In this document: one piece after another, positions 2,790 through 28,118 of the stretch
Position numbering within the stretch: position 1 is the first letter of the stretch
Layout: the number at the start of each line of letters is the position of its first letter
NCBI GenBank assembly: GCA_963728205.1
Contig: CAVSIV010000001.1
Coordinates: 1,152,001 to 1,216,000, forward strand
DNA length: 64,000 nt
Reading direction: 5' to 3'
Source of the DNA: an uncultured Chloroflexia bacterium
Lineage (GTDB): Bacteria; Chloroflexota; Dehalococcoidia; UBA2979
Notes under the pieces: generated by a model
Seen by the model: the letters and a program-made list of their open reading frames with translations, nothing else
Database searches by the model: none
Told to the model about the DNA's origin: nothing
Translations under genes and position numbers: made by a program

Positions 2790-2877
2790 AGCGTCGCGTC
2801 ATGAGGTCCAACTCAAGTCCAAGATCGCACCCAGATCGCACCAATCCATACCAAGATCAGTCCAAGATCGCACCAAC
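2790..2877 (-). promoter_or_regulatory. 11-bp-period direct-repeat promoter, copy 1, upstream of the T4SS operon
   Basis: Minus strand TTGGTGCGATCTGGGTGCGATCTTGGACTTGAGTTGGACCT (2844-2804), 8 nt, then GACGCT; aligns without gaps to copies at 20844 and 28064. Confidence 0.75.
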
Positions 2878-3124
2878 GCGCTAGCTTCCGCGGGAGGCGC
2901 CTCACGGCACCAGGGCGGCGCGGATTCTCGATCCGTGTACGTTCGGCCGGACAAAGCAGGCGCAACGCCGCCACCCACCTGCTCGCCTCCGCTTTTGCGG
3001 CGGACGGCATCGCGCGTGTCCAGCGGTCAGCGCTTGGTGGGACAGCGCTCGCTCGCCCGACATGCCGGATACTTACTCAATTGTGAGGTGATCAGTCAGC
3101 GTCAGGACCGGTTGGCTGCTAGGA

Positions 3125-4654
3125 TTAGATGATCCCCTCTTCGCGTGCCTTGGACATGGCCGCCACCTTCCCGGAAACGCCGAGCTTGTCGTACAGCCGA
3201 TATGCATGCGTCTGAACCGTCCTCCATCCAACGCCGAGGAGATCAGCGGTTTCCCGGTAGCTCAACCCCTCCGACAGATGCGTCAACACCTCCACCTCAC
3301 GAGGCGTCAGGTTGCGGCCATGGCCGGCTGCCCGCTCTAACGCCACGGAGCGTACTGCGGCATAGCTGTGCGGCAGGGGGTCGATGGCGCGAGCGGATAG
3401 CGCCTCGCGCCCGGCGCGACGCAGCAAGATCGCCTCGCGCTCGGAGCGCGCCGTCCCCGCGAGCGCCAGTATCTCGGATAGTTGAACGCGGGCGAGGGCA
3501 GCCTCCAGATTGTACCCGGCAGCATCTGACCAACGAATCGACCGCCGGAGCGAGGTAACCCCACCCCGCCGATCTCCGTTCCGAATCTGGAGCAGGCCGC
3601 GGACTCGATCAGCTGAAACCGGCCACTCCATCGTTGATCGCACGTGGCGCGGCAATGCAGACCGAAGCCACTGCTCCCAGCGAACCGCTTCCGCCTGGGT
3701 ACCCGCGATAGCGACCGCCTCGGCACCAGCGAGGGCCGAAGGGAGCGACATGAGCGTCAGCGCAGGGGGAGGGTGTGGGCAATCGGCTACTGACTCTTGG
3801 CGATAACCGTCAATGAGGGCGCTGAATGACTCAGCGTTGGTCGCGTCGCGGTTTGCACCCGCCTCAACTGAGCGCAAGTGCCCAACCAGTTCTCGCGCCT
3901 CCTCCCAGTGAGCACCCACCACCGCCCGTCGAATCGCAAGCAATAACTCCCGCCAGCGAGTCAGGTAGTTACGGGACGCGAGCCGAGCGTGGCCCCCCGA
4001 TGGGCAGTCATTGATGCTCTGGAGAGCGGAGTCAAATGCGCGAGCGTCGTCCAGACGCCACTGACTGCCTGACTGTTCTGCCTGGACTCGCAGGGACTGT
4101 GCCCACGGACGGGCCCGCAACTGATCCCCTCGCGCCACCAACCATGGGACGAACCAGCTCTTCAAACCGCTCGCGAGCCACTCGTACCCGCTCCGCTCCG
4201 CTAGTCGAATGGGTTCGACGAACAGGTCGAGGTCAGCATCCTCAAGCAAGAGGCACGCAACGGTCGCAGAGTAGATCTTGTACTCGACGTCGGCGCGAGC
4301 GCTGCTAGCCGGGCATAGGAGTGCTGCGGCCCCCTGCAACGATTGGCGAGCGCCCCCGGGATCCCCGCTAATTGCCTCGTACGCCGCCTTCACGCACAGC
4401 AGGTGCATCACCGTATCGGGGACATCGCCAGCCATCCCGAGGCCAAAATCGAGTTGCGCCACCGCTTCCGGGAAGCGACCCTCGGCGTCCAGTCGGACAG
4501 CGGCGAGCATCGCGAGTTCCGCAACCTGGTCCGGTCGCTGCGCGCCGTAGGCTTCCGCGAGCGCCTGCTCGTAGATAGCCCGCCACTCCGCGCTCGACAG
4601 AGCGCCGGCACGGCGAAACTGCTCCCGAACTCGATCGACCAAGCTGTGCATCAT
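3125..4654 (-). CDS. large LuxR-family regulator (helical/TPR-like N-terminus, C-terminal HTH)
   Basis: C-terminal 'LTPREVEVLTHLSEGLSYRETADLLGVGWRTVQTHAYRLYDKLGV'. Confidence 0.85.
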   Translation of the reverse strand: MMHSLVDRVREQFRRAGALSSAEWRAIYEQALAEAYGAQRPDQVAELAMLAAVRLDAEGRFPEAVAQLDFGLGMAGDVPDTVMHLLCVKAAYEAISGDPGGARQSLQGAAALLCPASSARADVEYKIYSATVACLLLEDADLDLFVEPIRLAERSGYEWLASGLKSWFVPWLVARGDQLRARPWAQSLRVQAEQSGSQWRLDDARAFDSALQSINDCPSGGHARLASRNYLTRWRELLLAIRRAVVGAHWEEARELVGHLRSVEAGANRDATNAESFSALIDGYRQESVADCPHPPPALTLMSLPSALAGAEAVAIAGTQAEAVRWEQWLRSALPRHVRSTMEWPVSADRVRGLLQIRNGDRRGGVTSLRRSIRWSDAAGYNLEAALARVQLSEILALAGTARSEREAILLRRAGREALSARAIDPLPHSYAAVRSVALERAAGHGRNLTPREVEVLTHLSEGLSYRETADLLGVGWRTVQTHAYRLYDKLGVSGKVAAMSKAREEGII

Positions 4655-4767
4655 CGCAGACCACCTGACTTACCCGGGATCGTAAGTCAATCGACTGACG
4701 ACGGGGGGCACGTACTTCGCCATGCTGCCAGATACAGCGCAGCGGGCGGTAGCGAGAGGGTGAAGCC

Positions 4768-5181
4768 ATGGTCGTCCCAGAGTGTCTGCTATTGACGGAG
4801 TTCATCACAGACGTCCTTCGGGAGGACGAGGCGCTGCGAGCGCGGTTGCGGGCAATGCTGACAGCGGGAGCCTCATCCGGCGAGTTGACTGAGGCGCTCG
4901 CCGGGCACGCGGATGAGGGAACGGCCGAGACTATCCGGCACGAGTACTACGAGCTCCCCGAGTCGACCGTGGCGACGATCCTGACGGCATGGATGGCTGC
5001 TGAGAACGCGGGGCGGCCCTTCGTCCTCCGGTCGTCACCACCAGCCGAGCCGATTGCGGCGGCGCGCAAGCGCCGCGTCGAGATCTCGATCGCGATGGAC
5101 GAGGATGGCGTGGTAGTGTCCCTGTCCCACGTCTGGGATCGGCACGCCGATTGCTATAAACCGGTGATGACAGCGGCGTGA
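4768..5181 (+). CDS. hypothetical protein
   Basis: 137-aa ORF with globular composition and an upstream GAGAGG. Confidence 0.55.
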   Translation: MVVPECLLLTEFITDVLREDEALRARLRAMLTAGASSGELTEALAGHADEGTAETIRHEYYELPESTVATILTAWMAAENAGRPFVLRSSPPAEPIAAARKRRVEISIAMDEDGVVVSLSHVWDRHADCYKPVMTAA

Positions 5182-5254
5182 TTTGAGTCTAATGCCGCCG
5201 CAGCAGTTCTGGTGGCAGGACCTTGGAAGGGGCCGGTCAGGATGCGAGTGATCG

Positions 5255-5551
5255 ATGCCCACCGAGCCTTCGCGCGTAGTGCTACCAAGGATCACGATGC
5301 GCCGCGCAACTATCCTGCGGGACATCGCTGCCGGCTTGACGCTCCGCGAGATCGCGGAGACACAATCCCTCTCCTTCAATGGCGTGCGTAGCCACGTGGA
5401 GGATCTCAAGAACATCACGGGGTGCACATCTGTCCGGCAGCTAGGTCAGTGGTGGCGTGCGCACCGAGCTGAATGGATAAGACTAATGAACATGTGCGCC
5501 CGCGATTCGGAGCACGATCGTTTGATTCGAAGGAGGAGGCGGCTGCGTTAA
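5255..5551 (+). CDS. small LuxR-type HTH protein
   Basis: 'ILRDIAAGLTLREIAETQSLSFNGVRSHVEDLKNITG'. Confidence 0.7.
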   Translation: MPTEPSRVVLPRITMRRATILRDIAAGLTLREIAETQSLSFNGVRSHVEDLKNITGCTSVRQLGQWWRAHRAEWIRLMNMCARDSEHDRLIRRRRRLR

Positions 5552-5879
5552 GTGACAACGACCGGTCCAATCATCCGCGACTATCCGCCAACTGATCACG
5601 ACTGAAGCAATTGATGATGACCTTCAACCCCTCGGCTTGGTTCGCTGCATGACTTGCACGTCTCGGAGAACCCTACGCCCGCGCGTCGCTTACACCAGCT
5701 TCCGGACCGCGACCTAGTGCGACGTCCCGGTGAGCGGACAGTTGAACTCTGCGATCCGGATCTGTAACGCAAGCGCGGACAGCACGGGGGCGCGGCGTCT
5801 CGCTCCGGATCCCCCGATTGGCGCAAGCGAACAGCGCCCGCCTTTCGTCGACGGTGAGGAGGGCCACGACACCGTCCCT

Positions 5880-6519
5880 GTACTCTGTCTTCCTTCGAGG
5901 GACCGCAATCTGAGGGTGGTTACTTATGGTGATCACGGCGTCGTTGACGGCGATGGCGGTGCGAGACGAGCTCGTAAAGAGGTCCTCGGCCTGGGTCACG
6001 GTGTGCTCATGCGCATGCCGAAGTCGTCGCGGATGAGCAGCTCGGGCGAGAGGTGGCCACGCAGCCTGGGCTGCCAGCTGTGTGGTCGGCGCGGCCACCG
6101 GCGAGATCGACGAGCAGCGCCTGGGCTGGTGAAGAGCCGACCCTAACGGCAGGCCGCCACGCCGAGGGCCTGCGCGAAGAAGGTCTTCCCGACGCCGGTG
6201 GGCCCGCAAACCAGCACGCTGGGGTGCTCTTCGAGGTAGCGGCGAGCGGCGAGTTGCCAGAGTTCGGCCTTCGGGATCTCCGGGTTGTAGCTGAAGTCGA
6301 AGTCGCGCAGGTCGTACGCCTCGTCGAAGCGCGCCCGGCGGATGCGGCTCGCCATCCCGGCGGCCTCGCGGCGCCTGAGCTCGTCGTCGAGCAGCAACTC
6401 GAGGAACTCCACCGGGTCGAGGCCGCGCGCGCGTCTCCTCCACCCGCGCGGTGTTTCGCCTCCGGCATCCCGGATAGCTGCGAGCCGCAGGCGTGGCGCC
6501 AGCGCCCGACACCGCTCAT
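5880..6519 (-). pseudogene. istB: IS21-family helper ATPase IstB, frameshifted
   Basis: 'EFLELLLDDELRRRE...RARF...LRDFDFSYNP', Walker A 'GPTGVGKT', 'ELLIRDDFG'. Confidence 0.8.
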
Positions 6520-7097
6520 CGCGCACCTGCCGTCGCGAAGGCGGCCGGTCCGCGGAGGTAGGCATCGGCGGCGTCCGGACCTGGAGGCTGGTCGGGCGGC
6601 TCCGCGAGCCCGCGCTCGAGCAGGCCCCGCACCGTGCGGAGCCGCCCGTCGCCCGGCATCCAGCGCCGGCCGGTAAGCCTGCTCCAGCCCCTCCTCGCCG
6701 TCCCAACGATCAGGCGCAGCACCTACCTGCACCTCGCGGAGGTGGTGCAGGGCGTGCGTCTCGAGCACCGCGCCGACCAGCTCCCGGTCGCGGTCTCGAC
6801 CACACGGGCGCGACGCAGGCAGGCCCGCGGGGTGGCTCAGGTCTTCTATACTCGCCGCCGTCTGCACAGGGGCCCGATCTTCTTCAAACGCGACAACGCG
6901 ACGGCCGATTGAACCGAAGCAACTCGACCTTCTCCAGACTCAGAGCGAACTACCGAACGCCGCGGCGCTGGCCGCTGCGGAAGGCCGGCTGACCCACCGA
7001 TGCCCCCCGAACCTGCTCCGCCACGTCCCCCTGCAAATCGGGACGCGGCTCTCGACGAAGACCAGATCGTGCGTGAAGAACCGGCGATGGACCTCAC
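6516..7097 (-). pseudogene. istA: IS21-family transposase IstA, degraded C-terminal remnant
   Basis: Directly upstream of istB with ATGA overlap; 'RTVRGLLERGL...YLRGPAAF' tail typical of IstA. Confidence 0.5.
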
Positions 7098-7171
7098 CTT
7101 TCGCGCGAGCCCGACCCACGCCCGACTCTGGCTAGCAAACCGTCTTCGGGCCCGCGCCGCCTGTCGCGCGG

Positions 7172-8110
7172 CTATCTAAAAGTCCGTCCTGACCGCTCAC
7201 CAGGGCGGTGAAGCATGGCGGACCGCCCGAGCAACAGAAGCGCGAGCGCAACGACGCCCAGCAGCGCTCCTCCCGCCAAGCTCGCGCGGCCTTCGTCTAC
7301 TAGGCCAGCATTCCCTGTGGGTGCGGGAGTGGGAGCGGGTACGGAAGTCACGGTGAACTCGACAGGCGCTCCGACGGGAGCGGCATCCGGCTGCGCGGCG
7401 CGCCTCACAGACAGTTCGAAGTGGGCACCGGAGTCGCAGGTGTCAGCAAGCGACGCACGAGGAATCTCATACTTCAAGGCACCATCGGGCGGAACGGCAA
7501 GCCCCGCCGAGATGAACTGGCCGGCGTCGGGTTGGTCGATTCGGCGAAGGAAGAAGCGCACCTCCAGCCCGGACGGAAAGCCACGAGTAGTCGCTGCGAA
7601 TGACGCGGTACACGGTGCCTGCATTGGGCTAAGGAACAGTTCGGCAATAGGAGTGCAGGATCCCTGTGGTTCGATCTTGCGGTCCGCTAGAAGAGAACAA
7701 ACCGACGGCGGGTAGAGTTGATCGCTCGGCACTACCTGGTACCCAGCGAATGCAATCGTACGGCCTGGCTGAAAGGCCGGATGGAACGGGCGAAGTACGC
7801 CGCGAAAGTCGACGAATGTCAAACTGGCGCCAGCCTCGTGACACACATCCGGTTGGCTTGCCTGGCCGACTTGGATCTCACTGTAACGAGTCAAATCTAT
7901 CTCTGTGCAAAATGTGTCATTAGCGAAGATGAATACGCCTCCTCCAAGAACGGACCCGGCGTCGCCACTTACAAGCGGGAACCCAACCTCTGCCGGTGGA
8001 GGGAACGTGATCGTCGCCCGTTGCTCGGCAGGGGCTTGACCCACAGCCGCAGTAGTGGTGAGAACCAAACAAACTGTGACTAAGGCAATCGCAAGTCCGC
8101 CACGCAGCAC
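7172..8110 (-). CDS. secreted protein with C-terminal sorting-signal-like tail
   Basis: Signal peptide; 'PAPTGNAG', TM helix and basic tail at the C-terminus. Confidence 0.65.
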   Translation of the reverse strand: MLRGGLAIALVTVCLVLTTTAAVGQAPAEQRATITFPPPAEVGFPLVSGDAGSVLGGGVFIFANDTFCTEIDLTRYSEIQVGQASQPDVCHEAGASLTFVDFRGVLRPFHPAFQPGRTIAFAGYQVVPSDQLYPPSVCSLLADRKIEPQGSCTPIAELFLSPMQAPCTASFAATTRGFPSGLEVRFFLRRIDQPDAGQFISAGLAVPPDGALKYEIPRASLADTCDSGAHFELSVRRAAQPDAAPVGAPVEFTVTSVPAPTPAPTGNAGLVDEGRASLAGGALLGVVALALLLLGRSAMLHRPGERSGRTFR

Positions 8111-8194
8111 TGGTTCCCCGCTCTCACCTTCACCCGCTGAAAGAGCAGACGCGGGCTAGCAAGACGCCCCCGCCCGCCTCCGAAGAAATTGGCT

Positions 8195-9097
8195 CTACTG
8201 TACCACAACAGTCACGTTCGCATTGTCTCCATATGGCTGGTGAAGATTATCAGCGTAGCCCCGAGGGAAGACGCCGAAGGTCCAAGTGCCTGAAGGTTGT
8301 CCCGTCCACGTTCCTCCGCTCGAGTTCTTCGTGGTGGCACCAACATATGTCCAGCTGGAGCCCGTCCAGCGCCAGATACTGAAATCAGCCTCATTGTGGA
8401 CGTTCGAGGGATCCCACGAGAGCGATACCCCACCGGCATATGGCGACGAACCACTAAGGCTCGAAACGGCGTCGATGTGGTACGCGTTGTGGTAATTCGT
8501 GAGGTCCAGCGTTTGTGGCGTCGTGTACCAGCAAGTTTCTGTCGTGTCCATCAGCGTGGCACCTGCCGGGCAGCCAGAGTAATCCGCATGACCAAAGACG
8601 TGGCCCAACTCATGCGTCACGTCGCGTGACGTGTGGGCCGCCCCATCTGCCCAGCAGGATCCACCACAACCGAACAAGCTTGGATTGACCCAAACCGTGG
8701 TCGGGTTATTGAGACTGTAAGAAGGATCCCCGGTCGTGCTCGTTGGTGCCGTGCACATGTGCGCGCCAGACGTGCAGTTTGAAGAGAACCCGCTGGTCGT
8801 GACCGTCACGGATGCCGGACAAGTGACGGAGCTCAGGGCCGTGAAACCTAGCGCGGAGTTCCACCGTGAGACACCCGTCGAGGTCGAACTTGTGAACCCG
8901 CTGCTGCAGACCGTGACTGCGGTTCCGCCGATCAGGCCCTGCTGCAGGCCGTAGTTCCAACCAGCTATGAGGTGGCCGTCAGTGTGATCAGCGTGCGCGA
9001 CCTGCTGGCCAAAGAAGCCGGCCATGAAGCCGCCTGACATCACGACGAACACCGCTAGAAGCAGTAGCCAGCGATTTCGGAACTGCGAAGTGTTCAC
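8195..9097 (-). CDS. secreted zinc metallopeptidase (HExxHxxGxxD) with C-terminal FN3-like domain
   Basis: Signal peptide (AHA); HELGHVFGHAD, Met-turn-like 'TLMD', 'VSLSWD...NEADFSIWR'. Confidence 0.75.
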   Translation of the reverse strand: MNTSQFRNRWLLLLAVFVVMSGGFMAGFFGQQVAHADHTDGHLIAGWNYGLQQGLIGGTAVTVCSSGFTSSTSTGVSRWNSALGFTALSSVTCPASVTVTTSGFSSNCTSGAHMCTAPTSTTGDPSYSLNNPTTVWVNPSLFGCGGSCWADGAAHTSRDVTHELGHVFGHADYSGCPAGATLMDTTETCWYTTPQTLDLTNYHNAYHIDAVSSLSGSSPYAGGVSLSWDPSNVHNEADFSIWRWTGSSWTYVGATTKNSSGGTWTGQPSGTWTFGVFPRGYADNLHQPYGDNANVTVVVQ

Positions 9098-9579
9098 GGC
9101 GTGCTCCTGACTGAGGATGTAACATCGTCGAAGAGCTCGCCAGGAAGGCTTCCATTGGCCCCTGGAAGCCTGTCGACCTCTGTACCCTTGGCCCCGTCAA
9201 TTCGAAGCAACGCGCCAGTCTGAGGATCCTCGAAAATGAGCAAGAGGAGGCCGCCAGGATCGTTGACTGTTGCGACCTTGTAGGCGAGCTCGCCGCCGGC
9301 CGGGACCGTCAGATACCAACCCGTTCCGTCCACGCGATACGTCCCGGATCCGACCTCATCACCCCAGCGAACAATGGGGACTCCCCTCGCATCGAACTTC
9401 GGCGGGGATGAAGAAGGGCCCGGGGGAAGCGGCGGCAGGGCAGTGGGCCCCAGGGGTGGCGGGGTTGCGGACGGCGGGGGCGCACCAGCGCCAGGGGCGC
9501 CAAGTGCAACGCCAGCGCCGACGCTTAGGGCTGCTACCAGGACAAGGCCCGCTACGAGCGCGATAGGATTCCTTCTCAA
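9094..9579 (-). CDS. secreted Pro-rich hypothetical protein
   Basis: Signal peptide and Pro-rich linker; overlaps the peptidase start. Confidence 0.6.
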   Translation of the reverse strand: MRRNPIALVAGLVLVAALSVGAGVALGAPGAGAPPPSATPPPLGPTALPPLPPGPSSSPPKFDARGVPIVRWGDEVGSGTYRVDGTGWYLTVPAGGELAYKVATVNDPGGLLLLIFEDPQTGALLRIDGAKGTEVDRLPGANGSLPGELFDDVTSSVRSTP

Positions 9580-9679
9580 CGCGTTTGCTCCTCACCTACG
9601 GTTCGGGTGTCGCCTTCATCGTCTTAGATCATGCTTCGGCGCCCCCCTCTACTTCGCACTACGCACTACACCGTCGCTT

Positions 9680-10524
9680 CTATCTGTAATACGTGAACAC
9701 GAATAAGACCCAATGCGTACCGTAATTGTGATCGGTCGATCTTGCGCTCTCCTCCTCGACGGTCGCGGGGTAGTAGTCGAGCTGCGCCTCCGCCCGGGGC
9801 CGTGCGGTGTCTCTAGCACCCGACACCGCGCCCCGCTCGTCGAGAAGCCGCGCTGGTCCCCACGCTCGAGCACCGTGCGGAGCCACTCGGCGTCCTCGTA
9901 GGCCACCTCACGTCCGATGGATGCGGTGCGACCGCCGCGTGCGCCGAGCAGGCGCGAGCACTCCAGCTCCACGAGGCGGCGGGGGAGGCCGCGATCACCT
10001 CATTCGAGCCGCGGGGCTCGACGTGGGGGCTGAGGTCCGAGCGGGGTCCTCGAAATCGACGAGGCGGCCGAGCCAGTTCGGGCTCACGTGTCCCGTGCGG
10101 TCGGTGAGCGCGAGCATGCGAGGGATGTACGTGCATCGCGACGTACGCTCGCGTCTCCGGGCTCGCCGCCGGCGCGACGAGGTCCGCGGCCGAGCTTGGC
10201 GAGCGCGAAGCGACCGCGATAGCTGGAGCGGGCGGGCGCGGCCATCGCCTGGTGAGGGGCGACGCAGCCGGCTACGCACTGCCGGCCTCGAGCACGGGCC
10301 GGGAGCGCGTCATGATCGCGGTCGCCCACAGGTGTGCCGCCCGCGCGGGCGGCGAGGCGACGCCCACCGTTCCCCGCCAAAGCGCGAGGGCGTCCGCCGT
10401 CTGCCGCTCCATCGACACCCCGAGGGCCGCGAGCGCCTGCGCCACGTCGTTGCAGCGAAACGCGAGCAACGGTCGCGCGGCGGCGAGGTCGCTCTGGGCG
10501 GCGGGCGTCGGCGCGAGCAGTCCC
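9680..10524 (-). pseudogene. degraded or truncated ORF of unknown function
   Basis: Protein-like fragments in several minus frames, no identifiable start. Confidence 0.25.
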
Positions 10525-10712
10525 CTTTCTACACGGCTTCCGCCTACATCGCGGGCACGCGGGTGACGGCGCGGGAGATTGCCGCCCTCTACCGGCACGG
10601 TTTGACCGGCGAGCGGATCGGCGAGGAATTCCCGGACGTACCGCTCAGCCACATTCATGCGGCTGTCGCCTACTCCTCGCGAACCGTGAGCGGATCGATG
10701 CCGATCTGAGCG
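10525..10712 (+). CDS. DUF433 antitoxin-like protein, 5'-truncated and frameshifted
   Basis: 'AYIAGTRVTAREIAALYRHGLTGERIGEEFPDVPLSHIHAAVAY'. Confidence 0.7.
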
Positions 10713-11062
10713 CCGAGACCGCTTCTGTCTCGATGAAGACGTGGGTCGCGCGCTCCTGCTCGCGCTTCGTGCGAATGGGATCGACGTGCTCTCGATGGTC
10801 GGGCGGACAGCGCGGGCAGCCGGGCGCCACCCAACTCGCATTCGCGACGGCCAGTGGTCGCGTGCTTGTGACGCGCAACGTCAGCGACTTCGCCGTCCAC
10901 CGGGGGGATGCTGACGAGTGGGCGCACCAAGCCAGCATCATCGCGATCTCCCGCCAGCGATTCGCGGCCGGGCTCCACGCGGCCGCACTCGCCCGCCTCG
11001 CCGCTCGCTTCACCCCGGAAGAGACGACCGGGGGCATGAAGTACCTGAGCAACTGGCGGTAG
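10709..11062 (+). CDS. DUF5615 PIN-like toxin, frameshifted
   Basis: 'LDEDV...LRANGIDVL', 'QLAFATASGRVLVTRNVSDF'. Confidence 0.7.
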   Translation, partial: SAETASVSMKTWVARSCSRFVRMGSTCSRWSGGQRGQPGATQLAFATASGRVLVTRNVSDFAVHRGDADEWAHQASIIAISRQRFAAGLHAAALARLAARFTPEETTGGMKYLSNWR

Positions 11063-11176
11063 TGCGAGGTGGCACCGGACGCCGCCGCCTGGATGCGTCG
11101 CATCCCGTCGTCACTACAACCCGGCGAGGGAATTCCGCCGTGCCCCTTGGCATCGGGAGTACTTGGCAGCAACGTA

Positions 11177-12007
11177 TGGACCGGATGAGCGCGACTCGCG
11201 CGAGCTACGACGCGGACCCGCAGTCCGAGTGGGAACGCTTGGACGGACGGGTGCAGAACCGGATCGAGTATCTGGTAACCATCCGCCGCGCTCGAGCGGC
11301 ATCTGCCGCCACCAGCAGCGCGTGTGTCCGTGCTCGACGCCGGCAGCGGGCCGGGCCGATACACCATCGACCTTGCGCGCCGCGGCTACAGCGTGACCTT
11401 GCTCGATCCGAGCCCGCAGGTGCTCCGTCTCGCTCGTGAACGGGTCGCGGCGGCGGGCAACATGGTGTCCGCCCGTGTCATGGGGATGGTTGAGGGATCA
11501 ATCACCGCCCTCCCAACATCGACGGATCGTACGTTCGATGCCGTGCTCTGCGTTGGAGGTGTGCTCTCGCACCTGCTCGACGCGCGCGAGCGTCTCGCCG
11601 CGCTGCTCGAGCTGCGCCGGGTCGCTAAGCCCGGAGCGCCGATCGTCATCTCCGTGTTGAACCACCTCGCCTCGTACCGGGCGGCGGTGCTTTGGCCGGG
11701 ACTGTGGGACACCTGGGATCCGGCTTTCCTCGGCGACACTCGCACCGCGCCGATTGCGAATGGCGCCCTCGTGTATGAGTTCTGGCCGAGGAATTCGCCG
11801 CCGTGCTCTCTGAAGCAAGACTGACCATCAGAGACGTATACGGCTGTCAGAGCCTGGCAGCACATCTCCCGGCAGCGCGTGGAGACTCTGATGGCGGATC
11901 CACGACGCTGGACGCAGTGCCGCAGCGCGCTCCTCAGCAGAGCCAACGATCCGGGCGTCGTCGGGCTATCTTGCCATCTCATCGCCGTCACTGAAGCGAC
12001 GACATAA
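11177..12007 (+). CDS. class I SAM-dependent methyltransferase, frameshifted
   Basis: 'EWERL', 'VLDAGSGPGRY', 'FDAVLCVGGVLSHL', 'ELRRVAKPGA'. Confidence 0.8.
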
Positions 12008-12020: not shown

Positions 12021-12497
12021 TCAGCGGAGCAAGGCGACGACGCCCCCGAGCGCGAGCCAGGGCGCGTATGCGATGAGGATCCTGGCGCGCTCCCGGCGGA
12101 GGACCAGGATGATGCTCGCGGCGATGCCCCCTGCGATCGCGGTTACGATGCCGGCGACGACGATGCCGCGTATCCCCACCACCGCGCCCACGAGCGCTGC
12201 CATCTTTACGTCGCCCCCACCGAGCCCGCCCCGACTCAGCCCGCGGATGAGCAAGGCGACGCAGAACGCGATGAAGGCAGCGGCCACGCTCGCCAGGAGA
12301 TCACCGTGTGGTCGCACTACCGAGAATACGAGCGCGAGGACGATCGCCGGATAGACAACAGCGTTCGGGATCCGCTGGTAGCGCAGGTCGCACCACGCGA
12401 GCCACACGAGGCCCCCGCCGAACAACACGATCGCCGCGGTCTTCCAAGGGTCTCCGCTCGCGGAGGCCTCGAGCATCTTCAGCGCGCTACTCGCCAT
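12021..12497 (-). CDS. cpaA: A24 prepilin peptidase (CpaA/TadV)
   Basis: 'DLRYQRIPN', 'GLGGGDVK', 'IAYAPWL'. Confidence 0.9.
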   Translation of the reverse strand: MASSALKMLEASASGDPWKTAAIVLFGGGLVWLAWCDLRYQRIPNAVVYPAIVLALVFSVVRPHGDLLASVAAAFIAFCVALLIRGLSRGGLGGGDVKMAALVGAVVGIRGIVVAGIVTAIAGGIAASIILVLRRERARILIAYAPWLALGGVVALLR

Positions 12498-16945: not shown

Positions 16946-16961
16946 TCCTCGCGCACGCTGC

Positions 16962-17532: not shown

Positions 17533-17534
17533 CG

Positions 17535-18419: not shown

Positions 18420-18832
18420 TGCGGAATCCCTCCTTGCGCACCTCCGACGTCGCGTCAGATCGGGATCGCCAGCCTCGTCACCCACGGGATGAAGAGCGGG
18501 TACGTGCCGCGCGCCTGCGTCACCACGACGTCCCCGCGGTCTTCGGTCGTGACCGTGAACGCTCCGCTCGTCGCGCCGAGCCCGGCCTGGAGCACCGACT
18601 GCGTGCGCGTCGCGCCGTCGGTGAGCGAGCCGCCGTCGGCCGCGGCGATGCGCGAGCCCTCGGCGGCGGCGGTCGCCGCGACGTTCTCGGCGTGCTGCAC
18701 GAGCGCGAACTGCACTGCGCCGAGCAGCGCGATCAGCAGGACCGGCAGCGCGATCGCGAGCTCGACCGTGCTCGCGCCCGACTCGTCGCGCAGCCAGCCC
18801 GCGCGCCTAGATGCTGCCGAGCGCCGTGACAA
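18410..18832 (-). CDS. tadE: TadE-like pseudopilin
   Basis: 'DESGASTVELAIALP', 'AAAEGSR'. Confidence 0.85.
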
Positions 18833-18992
18833 TGTTGCCGAACACTCCGGCGATCGTCGTGCCGAGCGTCTGCACGGCGGCCAGGGCCACGACCGCGATC
18901 AGCGCGGTGACGATCGCGTACTCGACCATCTCCGCCCCTCGTTCGTCTCGGTGGAGTGCGCGCGCTGCCGCCAGAACCAGCTCGAGCATCAC
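18807..18992 (-). CDS. flp: Flp type IVb major pilin
   Basis: 'RDERGAEMVEYAIV' Flp motif, hydrophobic helix, strong GAGGAGG RBS. Confidence 0.92.
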   Translation of the reverse strand: MMLELVLAAARALHRDERGAEMVEYAIVTALIAVVALAAVQTLGTTIAGVFGNIVTALGSI

Positions 18993-19018
18993 GTCCTCCT
19001 CTCCTCGTCACATGGGTT

Positions 19019-19957
19019 TCAGCGCAGGCCGAGCAGCTCCACCCCGGCGGGGTAGAGCAGCACGACCAGGAACACCGGGAAGATGAAGAGCGCGACCGGG
19101 AACAGCATGCGCACCGCCCCCTTGCCGCCCTCCTCGATGAGGTCTGTGCGCCGTCGCTCGCGCACGGTCTCCGCGAGCGCGAGCATCGCCGGCGCGAGTG
19201 GGAGCCCCTGCGCGTAGGCGAGGCGCCACGCATCGGCGAGCGAGCGCAGCTCCGCGATCCCCTCGCGCTCGGCCAGCGCCTGCAGTCCGTCGGCGTAGCT
19301 GCCGGTCCCGAGCCCCGCCTCGCGGACCACGCCGCGCAGCGCGTCGCCCAGCACGCCGGTGAGCTGCCGGCCGGCCTCGACGAGCGCCTGCTCCGGCGAG
19401 AGCCCCGCGCTGGCCGCGATCACGAAGAGGTCGAGCGCGACCGGCAGCTCCGCGCCGATCGCCCGGCGGCGCTCGCGCAGGCGGTCGTGCAGCATCCAGC
19501 TCGGGGCCGCGAAGCCCGCCACGAACCCGCCGGCCCACCACCACACGGGCCAGGTGCCGAAGGGGTGCACGCCGAGCAGGTTCATCGCGGGGAACGCCGC
19601 CGCCGACCACGGCGCCGCACGCCGCCTGCTGCCCGCGGAACTGTGCCGGCCGTCGTCCCCGGCCAGGCGAGCGCGAGGCGACGATCGAGGTCGCCGGCCT
19701 CGAAGCCGAGGCGGCCGGTCACGCGCACGAGCAAGGCGCCGGCGTCGTCGAGCACGGGCCGCAGCACGCGCTCGAGCAGCGGCGAGCGGAAGCGCGGCGG
19801 CCGCGCGGCGGCCTGCGTCGAGCTCCATCCGGCCCTGCGCCGAGAGCCGCCGCAGCCGCTCCTCGAGCGCCGGGCGCGGCCGCCCCAGCGGCTGCGCCAT
19901 CACGAGCAGCCACAGCCCGGCGCCGAGCGCGCCGCTGAGCAGGAGCGCCGGGGTCAC
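19019..19957 (-). CDS. tadC: TadC (T2SSF family), frameshifted
   Basis: 'ELPVALDLFVIAASAGLS', 'MLFPVALFIFPVFLVVLLYP'. Confidence 0.85.
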   Translation of the reverse strand: MTPALLLSGALGAGLWLLVMAQPLGRPRPALEERLRRLSAQGRMELDAGRRAAAALPLAAARARAAARARRRRRLARARDRPPRLRGRRPRSSPRARLAGDDGRHSSAGSRRRAAPWSAAAFPAMNLLGVHPFGTWPVWWWAGGFVAGFAAPSWMLHDRLRERRRAIGAELPVALDLFVIAASAGLSPEQALVEAGRQLTGVLGDALRGVVREAGLGTGSYADGLQALAEREGIAELRSLADAWRLAYAQGLPLAPAMLALAETVRERRRTDLIEEGGKGAVRMLFPVALFIFPVFLVVLLYPAGVELLGLR

Positions 19958-20809
19958 CGGAGCACCCGCCAATCGGTGGGCAGCGCCGCCGCCCGGCGCA
20001 TCAGCGCGTAGCCGGCCGCCACGCTCAGCAGGCAGAGCGCGAGCACCGCCTGCCCCCCGGGGGACGAGAAGACGTCGAGGTAGCCGGGGTTGCTGGCGCG
20101 GATCGTCACGATCAGCACGAGCGGCAGCGCCGCGATCACCCGCGCCGAGAGCACGTGCTGCGCCTGCTGGGCGCGCACCTCGCGCCGCACCTGCAGGCTC
20201 GCGCGCACCGAGCGCCCGAGGCCGTCGAGCACCGCCGCGAGGTTGCGGCCGCCAAGCCGGTAGGCGGTGAGCAGGGCCGCGACCAGCACGTCGAAAAGCG
20301 GGTCGGCCACCCGGTCACGCGTGCGCCGCGCCGCCTCCTCGAATCCCGAGAGGCGGGCGTCGCGCTCCATCGCCTGGAACTCGCGCCGGAGCGCCGCGGG
20401 GCCGGTGCGCCCGAGCGCGTGGATCGCCTCCTCGAGCCCCAGTCCCACGCGCACGGCGTCGCGCAGCGCGGCGACGGCCTCGCCGACGGCTTCCTCGACC
20501 TCGGCGCGCTCCCGCGCCGCGCGCTGGCCGAAGTACCAGGAGGGGAGCCCCAGCCCGACCGCGGTCGCGGCGAGCGTCACCACGGGCCAGCCGAAGCACG
20601 CCTGTGCGATAGCGCCGGCGACCGTGCCACTGGCTGCGCTCGCCAGCGCGAGCTCGCGCAGGCCCACACCGGGGACCGCCCGAGCGCGCCAGCGCGTCGC
20701 GCAGCCGGCGGCGCGCCGCGTCTCGCTCGCCGCCGCCCCGCCGCCCGGTGGCGGCGAGGTAGATCAGCAGCACGCCGGCGCCGAAGGTCATGCTCAGCAG
20801 GACGTTCAC
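19954..20809 (-). CDS. tadB: TadB (T2SSF family), frameshifted
   Basis: 'LRDAVRVGLGLEEAI', 'GGRNLAAVLD', 'SARVIAALP'. Confidence 0.85.
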
Positions 20810-20829
20810 GGCTCCCTCCTCAACGCCCC

Positions 20830-20915
20830 ATGGTCCCCGCGGCAGGTCCCAGTACGGTCCAAGACCGCACTCAGATCGCACCAATCGCTCCAAGATCGCG
20901 CCAGGATCGCACTCA
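20830..20915 (-). promoter_or_regulatory. 11-bp-period direct-repeat promoter, copy 2, internal to the tad locus upstream of tadB
   Basis: Minus strand TTGGTGCGATCTGAGTGCGGTCTTGGACCGTACTGGGACCT (20884-20844), 8 nt, then GACCAT. Confidence 0.75.
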
Positions 20916-20951
20916 CCCGGCCAGGAACCCGCCGAAATCGCACGGCGCGCA

Positions 20952-22221
20952 TCAGCCGCCCCGCTCCGGGCCCGGGTAGCCGGCCGCGAGCAGCCGCGCC
21001 TCGCGGCGCGCGCGGATGCCCGTCCAGCGCAGCACCCCCTGGTCGAGCGCGAACAGCTCGTTGCCGGCCACGGCCTCGCCCTCCATGCCCGTGACCTCGT
21101 AGACGCTGGCCAGCACGCGGCGCCCCGACGGGGCGAGCTGCAGGTGCAGCACGAGCTGGATCGCCTCGGCAATCATCTCGGTGAGCGCCTGGGCGGGGAG
21201 CGCTTCCTCGGCCATCAGCGCATAGGTGCGCAGCTTCGTGAGCGCCTCGCGGGGGCCGTTGGCGTGGATCGTGCACATCGAGCCCTCGTGGCCCGAGTTC
21301 ATCGCGGTCAGCATGTCGAGCGCCTCGCCGCCGCGGACCTCGCCCACCACGATCCGGGTCGGCCGCATGCGCAGCGCGTTCTGGACGAGCGCGCGGATCG
21401 CGATCGCGCCGGCGCCCTCGACGTTCGCCGGGCGCGCCTGCAGCGCCACGCAGTCGGGCAGCACCGCCTCGAGCTGGAGCTCGGCCGTCTCCTCGATCGT
21501 CACGACGCGCTCCTCGAGCCCGGAGATCGCCGAGGCCGAGGGCGTTGAGGCAGGTGGTCTTGCCGCTGCCGGTGCCGCCGGAGATCAGCATGTTCAGCCC
21601 GGCGCGCACGGCCGCCTGGAGGAAGACCGCGGCCTCCGGGGGCAGCGTCTCCAGCGCGACCAGCTCGTCCAGCGAGCGCGCGCGCAGCAGGAACTTGCGG
21701 ATGGTGACGTGCGTGGCGCCCGAGGTGAGCGGCGCGATGACCGCGTTGAGGCGCGAGCCGTCGGCGAGCCGGGCGTCGACCATCGGGCTCGTCTCGTCGA
21801 GCCGGCGCCCCAGCGGCCCGATCGCGCGTCGCACGAGCTGCAGCAGCTCCGCGTCGTCCTCGAACACGACGTCGGAGAGGCGCTTGCGGCCGCCGGCGAT
21901 CGCGAACACGCGCTCGGGGCCGTTGACGATGATCTCCTCGACCTCGGGGTCGTCGAGCAGCGGCTGCAGCGGCCCCAGGCCGAGCAGGTCGTCGAGCACC
22001 CGGCGCACGAGCGCCTCGGGCTCCCCGACCGGCGGCTCGCCGAGCGTCGCGGCGCGACGATTCGCGGCGGCGATGCACTCGAGCACGAGCCGGCGCGCCG
22101 CCTCAAACTCCACGGGTCCGGGCGCGAGCAGCGCCTCGACGTCGAGGGTGCGCCGCAGCTCGGCCTGCACCTCGCCGCGGATCGCCCGCTCCCGGGCGTC
22201 GGCCGCCGCGAGCGTCACCAT
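20952..22221 (-). CDS. cpaF: CpaF/TadA pilus assembly ATPase, frameshifted near 21530
   Basis: '[22 protein letters not shown]', 'GGTGSGKTT', 'TIEETAEL', '[16 protein letters not shown]', 'AMNSGH'. Confidence 0.93.
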
Positions 22222-22222
22222 C

Positions 22223-23395
22223 TCAGTCGGCCCCCGCCAGCCGCGGCACGAGCGGCTCCGCCACCGCGTCGCGACGCGCGCACCGCCGCGAGGCCGTCGG
22301 GCAGCGCCCGCAGGTCGCGTGCCGCGCGCCCGCCGCACCGGGGCAGCGGGAGCTGCCGATCGATCGCTCGCCGCGCGGCCTTGCGGTCCTCGCGCACGAC
22401 CGCCACCACCGGCATGCCCAGCACGCGCTCGATCTCGTTCGCGGTCGTAGTGCTCGCGTCCCTCCAGGCGGTTCACGACGGCGGCGAACGCGGTCCCGTC
22501 GGGGACGTCGTCCGCGATCCACCGCAGTCCGACCCGCGCATTCCAGACGGAGACGAGAATCGGCGCCGGTCACGAGCAGCACCTCGTCCGCGCAGTCGAG
22601 CACGCTCAGGTCCGCCGGCACGCCGGTGTCGACGACCACCGTCTCGAAGCGCGCCCTGAGCGCGTTCAGCACCCCGGCGAGCAGGTCCCGGGCGCGTGCT
22701 GAGCGCCAGCTCGGGCCGCTCGAAGCCGGCGAGCACCGCGCACCCCGGGCCTTCCTGCAACTCGTCGGTCACCTGCGCGCCGGGCGCCGCGAGGCCCACG
22801 AGGCCGCGCCGCGGATCGAGGTCCAGGTGGGGCGCGACGTTCCCGGTGCGGAGGTCGGCATCGACGAGCGCGACCGACCCGCGCTCGCCCGCGAGCGAGG
22901 CGAGCGCGATGCGCGAGCGTCGTCTTGCCGGTCGAGCCCTTTCCGCTCACGACGGCGACGACACGGCCGCTGCCTTCGCGGTCTTCCCGCGTTCGCGGTT
23001 CGGCAGGCGGTGCGTCCGCCACGGTTGGCCGTGCACCGCGGCTCTCCGCAAGGCGAAGCGCCGACGCGATCTCCCCGCCGCTGGAGGTGGCCGGGAGGAC
23101 GCGCGCGAGGGACGCGAAGGCCTCCGCGTCCGCTCCCGGGGGCGTGAGCGCCACCACCGGCAGCCGGCGTTCGCGCAGCGCCGCGAGCGTCGCCGGGCTC
23201 AACTGGTGCAGGTCGGTAGAGACCAGCGCGACGTCCACGCCCGGCGCCCGCGCCTGCTCCAGCAGGTCGGCCGCGCTGAGGCAGCGGGTGACCACCGTGA
23301 CGCCCTCGCGCGGAAGCTCTCGCGCCAGCCGACGCTCGAGCGCGCGGTCGCCGACGGCGAGCAGCGCGCGGATCGCGAATCGCCTCGCCGCTCAT
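22223..23395 (-). CDS. cpaE: CpaE/TadZ (receiver-like domain plus MinD-like ATPase), frameshifted
   Basis: '[15 protein letters not shown]', 'ALVDADL', 'FETVVVDTG'. Confidence 0.75.
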
Positions 23396-24086
23396 CGTGC
23401 GTCCCCTGCGCGGCGGCTGCGAGCTGCGCAGCAGCGAGCGTGAGCTGCGCGTTCACGACCGCGTCGGCGAAGCGCTCGGCGTCCGCGCCAGGGATGAGGA
23501 GGGTCACGTTGCTGACGCGACCGCTCGCAGCGGCTGAGTCGTGCGCGCCGAGCGTCACGCTCGAGGTCGCGCGCGACACGTCGTAGACCGTCGCGTCGTC
23601 GAGCAGCGTGCTGCTCTGGCTCTGCGGCTGGCCCTTGTCGGTCGTCGCGACGACGGTCACGTGATCGCCCGGGTGGAGCGCCGGGTAGACCGTGTCGGCG
23701 TTCACCGGGACGGTGACCGCGAGCTGGTCGGCGCCGATGGTCGGGACCGAGCCCAGGTCGGGTCGCAGCACGAGCGCGCCGGCGGGGATGGCCTGCTGCG
23801 CGGTCTGCCCGACGAGCGCCGCCAGGTCGGGAGCGGCCACCGCCAGCGCGGCCGGCGGCCCGTCGAGCCGCGCCTGCGCCGTGGTCAGGTCGTCGCTGCT
23901 GATGACGTGCCCCGCCGGGATCGCGTGCGCCGCGATCACCACCGGCTGCGTGATCCGCGCCTGGTCCGCGAGGCGCACGCCGCCGATCACCGCGGCCGCG
24001 ACGAGCACCACGCCCACGAGGAGCCGCACGTCCACGTGCGGCAGCGCTGCCGTTCGCCATCGCCGCCCGGAGGTAGTGATCGCCAT
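23392..24086 (-). CDS. cpaB: CpaB/RcpC SAF-domain protein
   Basis: 'VVIAAHAIPAGHVI', 'LHPGDHVTV'. Confidence 0.8.
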
Positions 24087-24374: not shown

Positions 24375-24381
24375 GCCGGCG

Positions 24382-24639: not shown

Positions 24640-25425
24640 GTGACCGCAGAGCCGAGCACAGCACCGCGGCCTGGCCGCCTTCAGCAGGCGCGTACCCCGC
24701 GCTGGCGCGTGTGCCTGCTCCCCGCCTTCGCCCTGCGGGCCGGGGAAGTTCCGGTCAAGGTGCCCGCGGCCGGGCGCCGCCTCGCCACTTTGCTCGCGCT
24801 CTACCCGGGACCGCTGACGGCACAGCAGGCGGCGTCGATGCTCTGGCCCCGCCTGTCCGAGCGCCAGGCAGCGTCGAGCCTGCGGACCGCGCGCTGGCGG
24901 GTGCGCGCAGCGAGCCCCTCGCTCCTCGTCGACGACCCGTCAGGGCTGCGGCTGCATCCCGACGTCACGGTGGACGCATGGGAGCTCGAAGCGCTCGCGC
25001 TCGACATGACCGAGCGTCCCGCGGACGTGATCGACACGGATCCGCGCCGGTTCGCGGCCGAGCTGCTGCCCGACTCCCGCGACGACTGGGTGCTCGCGCA
25101 GCACGCCCACCTCCGTGAGCTCTGCCTGCGCGCGGTCGAGGCGCAGGCGCGCCACTACCTCGCCTCGTCCGACTACGGCTCCGCGAGCAATGCCATCTAC
25201 GTGGCGATCACGATGGAGCCGGAGCGCGAGAGCGCTACGCGGACGCTGATGGAGATCGATCTCGCAGAGGGGAACCAGATCGACGCAGTGCGCGCCTATT
25301 TGCGCCTCGAACAGCGACTGGCGAGGGACGGCACCGCGCCGTCCAATGCGCTCCGCGCGCTCGTCGCACCGCTGCTCGACCAGCTCGCCCCCGGCGCGGC
25401 CGAGCGACTCTTGCGCTGGAGCTAA
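24640..25425 (+). CDS. SARP/AfsR-type transcriptional activator (wHTH plus BTAD)
   Basis: 'LLALYPG...LWP...SLRTARWRV', 'VDAWE', 'LLPD...WV', 'EPERES...LM...AEGN...A.RAY', 'PSNAL'. Confidence 0.85.
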   Translation: MTAEPSTAPRPGRLQQARTPRWRVCLLPAFALRAGEVPVKVPAAGRRLATLLALYPGPLTAQQAASMLWPRLSERQAASSLRTARWRVRAASPSLLVDDPSGLRLHPDVTVDAWELEALALDMTERPADVIDTDPRRFAAELLPDSRDDWVLAQHAHLRELCLRAVEAQARHYLASSDYGSASNAIYVAITMEPERESATRTLMEIDLAEGNQIDAVRAYLRLEQRLARDGTAPSNALRALVAPLLDQLAPGAAERLLRWS

Positions 25426-26037: not shown

Positions 26038-26212
26038 CGGCCACGTGGGTAGGCCCTGGCACTCCGTTCTGCGACCACCGCGCATGCGAGCTGGCTGCGG
26101 TCGTGCGTGCACAAATCGGCGGTGCTGCAAACCCCGTCACACAGTACGACCGCGACTTGGGCCTGACTGAGCACGAGCGCGTCGACCCGATCGGATGGTC
26201 CGCCGCTGGGAA

Positions 26213-26497
26213 CTACTGCTTTGGCCGTCGCCCTCGGCGAGCGGCTGATGCGCTCTTCTTCCACACCAGTGTGCGCTGATGCCCGTCCGTCCAACTCGAA
26301 CGAACGTTGATGCCGAGTTTCGCGGCGGCATCGGCAAGCCGTCGCTTCACGGTCGACGCAACTTCCCCTCGCTCGAGTGCGATCTGTCCCGCGTCAGCGG
26401 CGCGCAGAGCATCGAGATATGGCTTCCGTGCTGCGACCGCGGAACGCTCTCGTCCGATGCTGACTTCCTCTGGCTTCAACTGGACGAACTTCGGCAC
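26213..26497 (-). CDS. small basic hypothetical protein, possibly DNA-binding
   Basis: 'GEVASTVKRRLADAAAKLG' and basic tail. Confidence 0.55.
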   Translation of the reverse strand: MPKFVQLKPEEVSIGRERSAVAARKPYLDALRAADAGQIALERGEVASTVKRRLADAAAKLGINVRSSWTDGHQRTLVWKKSASAARRGRRPKQ

Positions 26498-26634
26498 GAA
26501 CTTCCCTCGTCTCTTCCAGCCGGGATTCCAGTGACGATAGCGTCCTCCTGGCCGGCCGCGAACGCCACTCTCCGAAACACATGAGTTCGCGCAGCAATCC
26601 GTATCGCCCATTGAAGCCGAGGGAGGGCTCTCAC

Positions 26635-27802
26635 ATGCCACAGGGACGCTCGTTCACGCGCGAGGAACTGCATGCCTTCGTGTGGTCCGAACCGGTCAGC
26701 AAGAATCGCGCCGCGCTTCGGAACCTCCGGCGTCACGCTCGCGAAGATCTGTGCCGGCGCGCGCATCCCGGTGCCGCAACGCGGGTACTGGGCGAAGCGT
26801 CAGTTCGGGAAGCACGTCGAGCCCGATCCGCTTCCTCTGCGCGCGCCCGGTCAGTTCGCACGGGTCTACGTTGGCTCGCGGAGGCCCGGCCGTTCGTTCC
26901 CCACGGTCGACGACCAGCAGCGCGCGCTGGTCGCGCCGGAGTTCCCCGACGACATCGTCGAGCTCACCGCGGCCGTTCGCCTGCGCGTTGGACGCCCACG
27001 CGCGCCGCGTCTCGAGCACCGTACGCACCCGCTCATCGATCGGTTGCTCCAGGAAGAGCGGCAGCGGCAGGGCGACGCCACGACCCCGACGTACATGCGC
27101 CGCGAGCCTCGGTTCGCGTCACCCCTCGACCGGCGCCGACTGCGCATCGTGAACGGCATCTTCCTCGCCGTTTCCCGCGTCGACGCGCGTCCCGGGCTCC
27201 AGGACTTCGGCGAGCTGCGCTTCGGGGTCACCGTGAGCGACACGTGGGTGCCATTCGTCATCGAGCGCGCCGCCTCACACAGCCGGCGGACCTCTGAGGC
27301 GCACGCGTCACTCGAGCTGCGCATCGATGTGCGCGACGTCTCGCACGACCTCGGTGCGTGGGACGAGCGGGAGCGCCCACTCGAGGAGCAACTCGGCGAC
27401 ATCGTCACCCGCATCGTCGTCGCTGGCGAGATCGTCTACCGCCACTGGGAGCGCGAGGTCTACGACTACACCGTCGCCGAGCGGCAGCGCCGCCGCGACG
27501 AGGCGGTGCGGATCGAGCGCGAGCGGCGCGAGGCCGATGACCGGGCACGCGTCAAGCGGCTGCTGCGAGAGGCGGGGTGCTTCCGCGACGCCGCCGTCAT
27601 CCGCGACTACGTCGCCGCCGCTCGAGCGGCGCACGCGGACGCCGCGGAGCCCGTCGACCGCGAGCGGTTCGAGGCGTGGGCGACTCGGGCGCTCACGCAG
27701 GCCGATCGCCTTGATCCCGTTACCTCCGGCGAGTACCTGCGCGAATCCGACAGCCCTGTGAGCGGCGATCGTGTGAGCGGCGAGCACCTGCCGTTTGCCT
27801 GA
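26635..27802 (+). CDS. conserved mobile-element hypothetical protein with N-terminal HTH-like motif, frameshifted near the start
   Basis: 'TREELHAFVWSEP...FGTSGVTLAKIC...IPVPQRGYWAK'. Confidence 0.7.
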
Positions 27803-28043
27803 GCGACCGGGATCCTCCGCGCGGTGAGCGGCGCGTGGCGTGCGCGGTGTGGGCGAGCGGCTCTCGCACGAAGCGTGTGCGTGTCCAGATCACCAATCAT
27901 CCGAGGGCAATTTCGCTCCAACTTCGCACCAACCCGGCGACGAAGCTGCGCGAATGCGCCCGTTCCGCGTGACCGACCGCCGGACGGCCGCGCGCTCCAG
28001 CCTCTCCCTGGCTCATGGGGCGCTCGCGCGGACCGATCCGAAG

Positions 28044-28118
28044 TTGGCGCGAATCTGGATGGGTTGGCGCTATCTGGGTGCGATCTTGGACCGATCTGGG
28101 ACCTCCGCTGCGTAGCGT
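28044..28118 (+). promoter_or_regulatory. 11-bp-period direct-repeat promoter, copy 3, upstream of the primase/anti-defence operon
   Basis: TTGGCGCTATCTGGGTGCGATCTTGGACCGATCTGGGACCT (28064-28104), 8 nt, then TAGCGT. Confidence 0.75.

Follow-up and report, generated by a model that had tools for sequence, protein, structure and literature searches.

A probable SARP-type promoter regulon in a Tad-pilus conjugative element of the Chloroflexota

Can a conjugative element outside the actinomycetes switch on its transfer genes through promoters built for activators of the SARP family? This question is raised by a stretch of 64,000 nucleotides (nt) from an uncultured bacterium of the Chloroflexota (Dehalococcoidia), which covers positions 1,152,001 to 1,216,000 of contig CAVSIV010000001.1 in assembly GCA_963728205.1 and is referred to here as the window, with positions counted from its first letter. 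The window covers part of an integrative and conjugative element (ICE) that begins ~10 kb to its left, and it holds three arrays of tandem 11-nt repeats, which we designated A, B and C. An earlier note on this DNA had proposed that they form a SARP-type regulon. In actinomycetes, SARPs are familiar as switches for antibiotic synthesis; the host of this element is not an actinomycete, and the usual setting of the family, an actinomycete host and the control of secondary metabolism, is absent here. Our analyses nevertheless lead us to consider it quite probable, from the arrangement and comparison of sequences, that A, B and C are activator-dependent core promoters of the SARP type and constitute a private regulon of this type IV secretion system (T4SS) and Tad pilus element.

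The core of each site is a gap-free block in 11-nt register, made up of three 11-mers and a final 8-mer. Promoter A (2790–2876, minus strand) lies upstream of the T4SS operon, with its block at 2844–2804, spacer at 2803–2796 and hexamer at 2795–2790. Promoter B (20830–20915, minus strand; block 20884–20844, spacer 20843–20836, hexamer 20835–20830) is placed in the 142-nt gap between tadA, whose stop is at ~20952, and tadB, which starts with a GTG at 20809. Promoter C (28044–28118, plus strand; block 28064–28104, spacer 28105–28112, hexamer 28113–28118) precedes the primase/Rad52/ArdC/RadC operon. The three 41-bp blocks, 8-nt spacers and xAxxxT hexamers described in the earlier note were recovered letter for letter, and each array points at the operon downstream of it, as had been claimed. 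The note had also reported further units upstream, and two to three of these are indeed present at every site (2876–2845 in A, with lengths of 11, 11 and 10 nt; 20915–20885 in B; 28044–28063 in C), yet they fall out of the 11-nt register through units of 8, 9, 10 or 12 nt (10 nt in A, 9 nt in B, and 12 and 8 nt in C). At all three sites the two distal in-phase units have TGC at unit positions 5–7 (CGC in the first unit of C) and the two proximal in-phase units have ACC or ACT there. The last 8-mer in this ICE is TGGGACCT.

These arrays have the hallmarks of SARP promoters. There are four units at exact 11-nt steps in A, B and C, the 3' repeat lies 8 bp before the predicted -10 in all 33 promoters that we tabulated from this and related ICEs, and the box overlaps a poor or absent -35, since no sigma-70 consensus promoter was found at A, B or C and the second unit covers the -35 position. 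The available text of PMC10936776 gives direct repeats 11 or 22 bp apart, with the 3' member 8 bp from the -10, as the arrangement of SARP promoters, which agrees with the rule for AfsR and other SARPs that the earlier note had stated (11-bp repeats, 8 bp from the -10) and adds the 22-bp spacing to it. The same text describes afsS as having a poor -10 (CACTGT), a poor -35 and a 22-bp afs box at -40 to -19, and a side-by-side SARP dimer that replaces the -35 as the contact for sigma region 4. As far as that source describes them, the targets of Streptomyces SARPs (AfsR-afsS, ActII-ORF4, DnrI and RedD) resemble the sites in the window in their 11- or 22-bp repeats, the 8 bp to a poor -10 and the lack of a usable -35.

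By analogy, tandem SARP-domain protomers would bind the 11-nt direct repeats along one face of the helix. With a transcription start ~7 nt past the hexamer, the proximal pair of units would cover ~-39 to -18, which is within 1 nt of the place of the AfsR box of afsS. The bound SARP would then stand in for the missing -35 by docking sigma region 4, and RNA polymerase would be able to use the weak hexamer 8 nt downstream. Three operons would be activated together in this way, namely the T4SS operon, the pilus genes from tadB onward and the leading-region operon for primase and anti-restriction functions, and with its own repeat sequence in each ICE lineage, co-resident elements would not activate one another.

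The arrays are highly specific to these three places. When the 17-mer of the block was searched with up to 3 mismatches, 4 matches were obtained in the window against 0.23 expected, a number reached in none of 100 shuffles. The genome assembly (4.1 Mb in 6 contigs, completeness 89%, contamination 5.6%) was searched on both strands with a position weight matrix (PWM) of the 41-mer, which was built from sites A, B and C themselves and matched only these sites and a shifted copy within A. Chains of at least three unit matches at 10–12-nt steps occurred four times in the genome, every one at A, B or C. The earlier note had said that a motif scattered through the genome would count against its proposal; it is not scattered, as both the chains and the 41-mer proved to be confined to the three sites. 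Unit pairs were found 14 times genome-wide, three of them in the window (inside A, a weak pair at 12202, and a pair at 27932–27911 on the minus strand). The bare 8-mer core with one mismatch was not enriched on its own (64 found versus 63 expected); the signal therefore resides in the tandem arrangement. Exact 8-mer matches at 26378, 34282 and 37559 are isolated, with no adjoining units. A de novo search for 11-nt self-similarity was uninformative, being dominated by codon periodicity at periods 9 and 12. The periodicity scan also revealed a perfect 12-nt period at ~49442, with 33 of 33 positions repeating.

The same layout was found in related ICEs. Relatives of the small SARP of the window occur in 35 of 99 genomes of the order, the window's genome included. 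Among 20 stretches compared around such matches, 12 align to the Tad genes through tadC, and nine of the 12 also have primase-operon genes. The stretches were extended to take in the T4SS side, and at four further loci the first T4SS gene falls outside the compared DNA; a pattern made from a conserved leader behind promoter C retrieved 15 loci in species-representative genomes, mostly elements already in the set. Together these gave 33 promoters at equivalent positions in 17 ICE copies, comprising six of type A (T4SS), 10 of type B (tadB) and 17 of type C (primase), and 30 of the 33 come from ICEs other than that of the window's three sites. All 33 consist of direct repeats of 11 nt (sometimes 22 nt), a last 8-mer, 8 nt and a hexamer; the 22-nt units are distal ones in the G012/G096 lineages. 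The SARP-type interpretation of the earlier note is thus supported, as every sequence-level feature of such promoters is found at A, B and C and is repeated in 30 further promoters.

The three promoter types also differ in what fixes the hexamer. For promoter C alone, the position of the hexamer was derived from the conserved leader, without use of the repeats, in all 17 copies, and each of these leader-bearing copies has a last 8-mer behind two or more 11-nt units, then 8 nt and TA(G/C)(C/G)(C/G)T, with TAGCCT in 12 of them. At promoter B, repeats are present in the tadA–tadB gap at 10 of 15 loci and are followed after 8 nt by CAnnnT or GAnnnT, which in each of the 10 precedes the start codon of tadB by 20–21 nt. 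All six copies of promoter A that were examined, in the window and in five related ICEs, are in register with ICE-specific units, and in five of them the hexamer lies 2–3 nt before a conserved motif of the 5' untranslated region (UTR). Across 18 promoters from 10 lineages, G occupies -13 in 18, -24 in 17, -35 in 18 and -46 in 15, and A occupies -12 in 16. One 1477-nt contig (L064), binned in a metagenome-assembled genome of Phenylobacterium, carries a promoter C and leader nearly identical to those of another locus of the set (L058), and its placement in that genome is most likely a binning error.

While the layout is shared, the repeat sequences are not. The last 8-mers of other lineages are TGTGAACG, CTGGACTG, GTGGAGTC, CAGGAAGG, CCGGAACG, TGTGATGG and CGGGGATG, and a search of the related loci for the TKGG units of the window gave a single match, in L045, from which it is evident that units differ between ICEs. 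For the five lineages with at least two promoters each, the repeat blocks of different operons in the same ICE had an identity of 0.73 (n = 11), versus 0.40 for the same operon in different ICEs (n = 23). This order reverses for the spacer, hexamer and 30 nt downstream, with identities of 0.32 and 0.47, respectively. When ICE labels were permuted within operon classes, the observed value was reached in 0 of 5000 permutations. In addition, each of the two genomes that have two ICEs (G094 and G085) holds two unit types. Such concerted change of the boxes reads as the signature of a regulon under an element-encoded protein: boxes that change together within an ICE and differ between ICEs are what one would expect if the element encodes the reader.

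In scans of 20–64 kb per ICE with ICE-specific PWMs, no units came up outside A, B, C and a divergent fourth site. In the window this site is the unit pair at 27911–27932 (minus strand), which lies ~130 nt upstream of promoter C and points away from it. The divergent arrangement, each time with the ICE's own units, was also observed in two other lineages (L032 at ~8010 and L037 at ~8066, both plus strand). A conserved stretch containing CGGAT follows the pair, and nothing conserved is encoded downstream; the open reading frames (ORFs) at 25.5–27.9 kb, between the small SARP gene and promoter C, have no relatives among the other ICEs.

Which protein might read the boxes? The element encodes two BTAD proteins, as the earlier note had recognized, and profile and fold comparisons revealed a full SARP domain in each, with an N-terminal OmpR-type winged helix-turn-helix (wHTH) followed by BTAD as in Streptomyces SARPs. 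The first, SARP1 (12487–13242, minus strand), is the C-terminal part of a large LysM membrane protein (LysM-SARP, 12487–16026, minus strand). It has the Pfam domains Trans_reg_C and BTAD, its profile matches EmbR over residues 16–253, the whole SARP domain, with an E-value of 1.4e-7, and the top fold matches of its model are AfsR and EmbR. The second, SARP2, is a small stand-alone SARP (24640–25425, plus strand, conserved core from 24709) divergent from the cpaB–tadA genes, with a Pfam BTAD domain, a profile match to AfsR residues 35–262 (E 6.6e-7) and a model (pLDDT 82.7) that has a three-strand wing and as its top fold matches AfsR in its transcription complex and EmbR (TM 0.67). Single-sequence searches of the PDB with either protein gave no match, so profiles were needed; SARP1 and SARP2 are homologous to each other (hhalign probability 98.6). 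Both are SARP-domain proteins by profile and fold, both are conserved in every ICE compared, and Pfam found in neither protein the phosphoryl-receiver domain of OmpR/PhoB response regulators. Intact LysM-SARP homologues range from 1075 to 1220 residues and carry two LysM domains and three hydrophobic segments; one of them, of 1154 residues, also shows a BTAD at its C terminus. The membrane topology is a guess from hydropathy.

Proteins resembling LysM-SARP in combining LysM and BTAD form many clusters, mostly labelled Actinomycetota, which we note as a lead only. Three more genes similar to the small SARP were found in the genome on contig C6 (671539–672219, 772516–773202 and 774977–775651), outside any ICE copy and with no unit chains of the window's ICE nearby.

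Comparison of box similarity with protein identity among 11 ICEs (Mantel test, 5000 permutations) gave a rho of 0.56 for the SARP1 domain (0.50 after removing the backbone), with the observed value reached in 0 of 5000 permutations. For SARP2, rho was 0.11 (1197 of 5000), and for the mean of seven backbone proteins it was 0.29 (137 of 5000). The clearest pair, G016 and G085a, shares the same boxes, with 74% identity in SARP1 and 49% in SARP2. These comparative data lean toward SARP1 rather than SARP2 as the reader, which is not a proof. In our judgment the chances are evenly balanced that the boxes are read by the C-terminal domain of the LysM membrane protein; the small SARP is a possible, weaker candidate, and the small remainder falls to both acting together. 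The two unit subtypes (TGC versus ACC/ACT) could reflect the small SARP and LysM-SARP binding side by side. A more elaborate proposal, which we put forward only tentatively, makes the reader part of a single-chain sensor-activator. A LysM protein anchored in the membrane, with its SARP domain in the cytoplasm, would couple a signal from the cell wall or from mating contact directly to the three operons, and each ICE lineage would have evolved private boxes that keep several such elements in one cell from cross-talk.

Several points weigh against a SARP-regulated set of promoters or against the assignment of its reader. From sequence we infer the binding, the activation as opposed to repression, the transcription starts and the identity of the reader. 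The hexamers, which read CAnnnT, GAnnnT or TAGCCT, are weak, and this phylum lacks established rules for promoters. Those of A and B were picked by requiring xAxxxT at 8 nt, so that their fit is checked only by the separate anchors, and two of these 16 placements (B of L034 and A of L071) were moved by hand to the proximal repeat set from one lying upstream of it. Promoter B is lacking at five of the 15 loci (four with overlapping tadA and tadB, one with a repeat-free gap), and the regulon is therefore not uniform. At the divergent pair the nearest -10-like hexamer is at ~12 nt, which breaks the 8-nt rule. As to the reader, the model of the SARP1 wHTH is of low confidence, TadA (0.54) and TadB (0.49) correlate with box similarity nearly as well as SARP1 does, the identities of SARP2 are compressed at 38–60%, and the SARP1 correlation comes from 11 ICEs that are mutually related. 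Furthermore, the LysM-SARP gene is broken in the window. The earlier note had treated 12487–16026 as one gene frame, which did not hold up: in comparison with an intact homologue of 1154 residues it contains two in-frame stops and several frame changes, and is either broken or mis-assembled here.

The repeats could instead be operators, at which an element-encoded SARP-like protein or another repressor, seated over the -35 and spacer, silences the conjugation operons as long as transfer has not been induced. Transfer genes are kept repressed in many ICEs, the boxes overlap the core promoter, and there are up to seven units per promoter, above the two that a dimer of the AfsR type needs. At A, B and C, however, there is no -35-like hexamer or consensus promoter to occlude, and the 8-nt phase fixed across 10 lineages is the geometry reported for activation, one that an operator would not need, which makes repression improbable in our view. 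We consider it still more doubtful, indeed very unlikely, that a response regulator of the OmpR/PhoB type from the host reads the repeats and that the SARPs of the element have other targets. Winged helices of the OmpR family do generally bind 11-nt direct repeats that replace the -35, but the motif is nowhere else in the host genome, different unit types are found in ICEs of one genome (two each in G094 and G085), and unit type tracks a protein of the element.

On mobile elements, direct repeats in tandem frequently have a part in replication or partition, and promoter C adjoins a primase gene and a conserved non-coding stretch, from which it might be argued that the repeats are iterons, centromere-like sites or transfer-origin sites with no role in transcription. 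The repeats, however, form three separate arrays, each aimed at its downstream operon and in fixed phase with hexamers that are anchored to a start codon, a 5' UTR or a leader, and we give this explanation hardly any credence.

The SARP-type regulon that we favor would serve an element with the gene content of a T4SS-bearing ICE. To the left of the window are genes for a VirB4-type ATPase (TraG P-loop/AAA_10), a Toprim primase, a coupling protein (TraG-D_C) and a large serine recombinase (L078 9943–11760, minus strand, ~10 kb left of the window), the last of which is likely the left end of the ICE. Beyond it are housekeeping genes, for an S41 peptidase, AhpC, a hydrolase, an MFS transporter and pyruvate:ferredoxin oxidoreductase. 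The integrase, VirB4-type ATPase and coupling protein of an ICE with a T4SS were all found, with TrbL_4 and SLT inside the window. No relaxase family was detected among the ORFs scanned in the window and left flank, where several long ORFs matched no family at all. The first gene behind promoter A is a small ORF of ~116 residues with no Pfam family (2385–2732, minus strand), followed on the same strand by a TrbL/VirB6-like gene from 2380 leftwards and, at 445–1467, a gene with an SLT domain, both assigned by Pfam. The 5' UTR behind promoter A (2789–2733, minus strand) is conserved in L066, L071, L074 and L075, and in the homologues an inverted repeat of 11 nt lies within it, stopping immediately short of the ribosome-binding site that serves the first T4SS gene. 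The Tad pilus genes (16046–24086, minus strand) comprise cpaB, an ORF, tadA (split over two frames in this copy), tadB, tadC, three tadE/G-like genes and a gene with a PKD domain; by Pfam, the set around promoter B also includes a prepilin peptidase.

The operon behind promoter C (28677–35590, plus strand) encodes two conserved ORFs with no family, a small ORF, a primase-Rad52 fusion, ArdC and RadC. Between promoter and operon is the conserved leader (28119–28290, plus strand, ~170 nt), which starts right after the hexamer and is kept, with invariant stretches, in all related ICEs (L051–L065). No protein-coding signal was found in the leader, and Rfam gave no match on 27800–28900 at E-values up to 1. 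RNAalifold predicted 32 pairs, 11 of them with compensatory changes, although the covariation term was weak (-0.97). The stretch may represent a structured 5' leader, a small RNA or a DNA site belonging to the leading region. A search of sequencing runs with 27800–29300 matched no RNA run and two DNA runs, the latter with 0.05–0.07 of words.

The stretch at 3100–12000, of lower G+C (0.62–0.69), extends from promoter A to the prepilin peptidase and holds a LuxR-type gene of 509 residues, an IstB (IS21 helper) fragment, a DUF433 gene and a methyltransferase. It is absent from related ICEs and is therefore probably inserted cargo. Frame changes in the window affect the LysM-SARP gene, tadB (20315–20809/19954–20667) and tadA (20952–22476), all on the minus strand. 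The LysM-SARP gene and tadA are single frames in homologues, and split matches are also seen elsewhere in the genome; the breaks may stem either from decay of the element or from indel errors in the assembly. No further copy of the ICE was found in the genome, which has one 18-kb contig with T4SS fragments.

How does this predicted circuit compare with known ones? Unlike the Streptomyces systems, it has a Chloroflexota host, its targets are conjugation, pilus and leading-region operons rather than antibiotic clusters, it has four in-phase units plus out-of-phase distal ones as opposed to two or three, and its repeat sequence varies between related elements. The large SARPs, as far as the available source text describes them, have extra domains after the SARP domain, whereas one of the two candidate readers here forms the C-terminal end of a LysM membrane protein. 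EmbR of Mycobacterium tuberculosis is the best profile match of SARP1 over the whole wHTH and BTAD region and a top fold match of both models, but EmbR is soluble with a C-terminal FHA domain, while in LysM-SARP the hydrophobic segments and LysM domains are N-terminal. Membrane-bound one-component activators of the ToxR/CadC type seem to resemble LysM-SARP in having an OmpR-type DNA-binding domain, membrane segments and an outside domain in one chain; their DNA-binding domain is N-terminal, in contrast to the C-terminal position with BTAD here, and for LysM-SARP the topology is a guess from hydropathy.

A module of the same gene order exists on two plasmids, Microbacterium pYJNG and one of Candidatus Chlorohelix: cpaB, the tad ATPase, tadB, tadC, tadE/G and a gene for a large LysM protein are arranged as in the element of the window, and T4SS or relaxase genes adjoin them. 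Pfam detected no BTAD in the LysM proteins of these plasmids, and a register scan of both plasmid stretches found no SARP-type repeat promoter, only one weak Microbacterium match of unrelated sequence. Since the plasmid modules have neither BTAD in their LysM proteins nor the boxes, the SARP circuit seems to be an add-on in part of the range of the Tad/LysM/T4SS module.

A literature search, covering titles and the openings of abstracts, found no report linking SARP or BTAD regulators to conjugative elements or to Chloroflexota. Relative to the known SARP systems, what would be new is the phylum, the transfer-gene targets, the four in-phase units with distal ones added, the lineage-private boxes and, possibly, a membrane-anchored reader. 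The finding also yields a natural collection of box sequences, at least eight of them distinct, that are matched with related SARP domains and may be of use in studying DNA recognition by SARP winged helices and as orthogonal pairs of activators and promoters. Moreover, it provides a concrete, testable model of how a Tad-pilus/T4SS element of single-membrane bacteria may turn on transfer. A promoter geometry familiar from the SARPs appears here to control horizontal gene transfer in another phylum.

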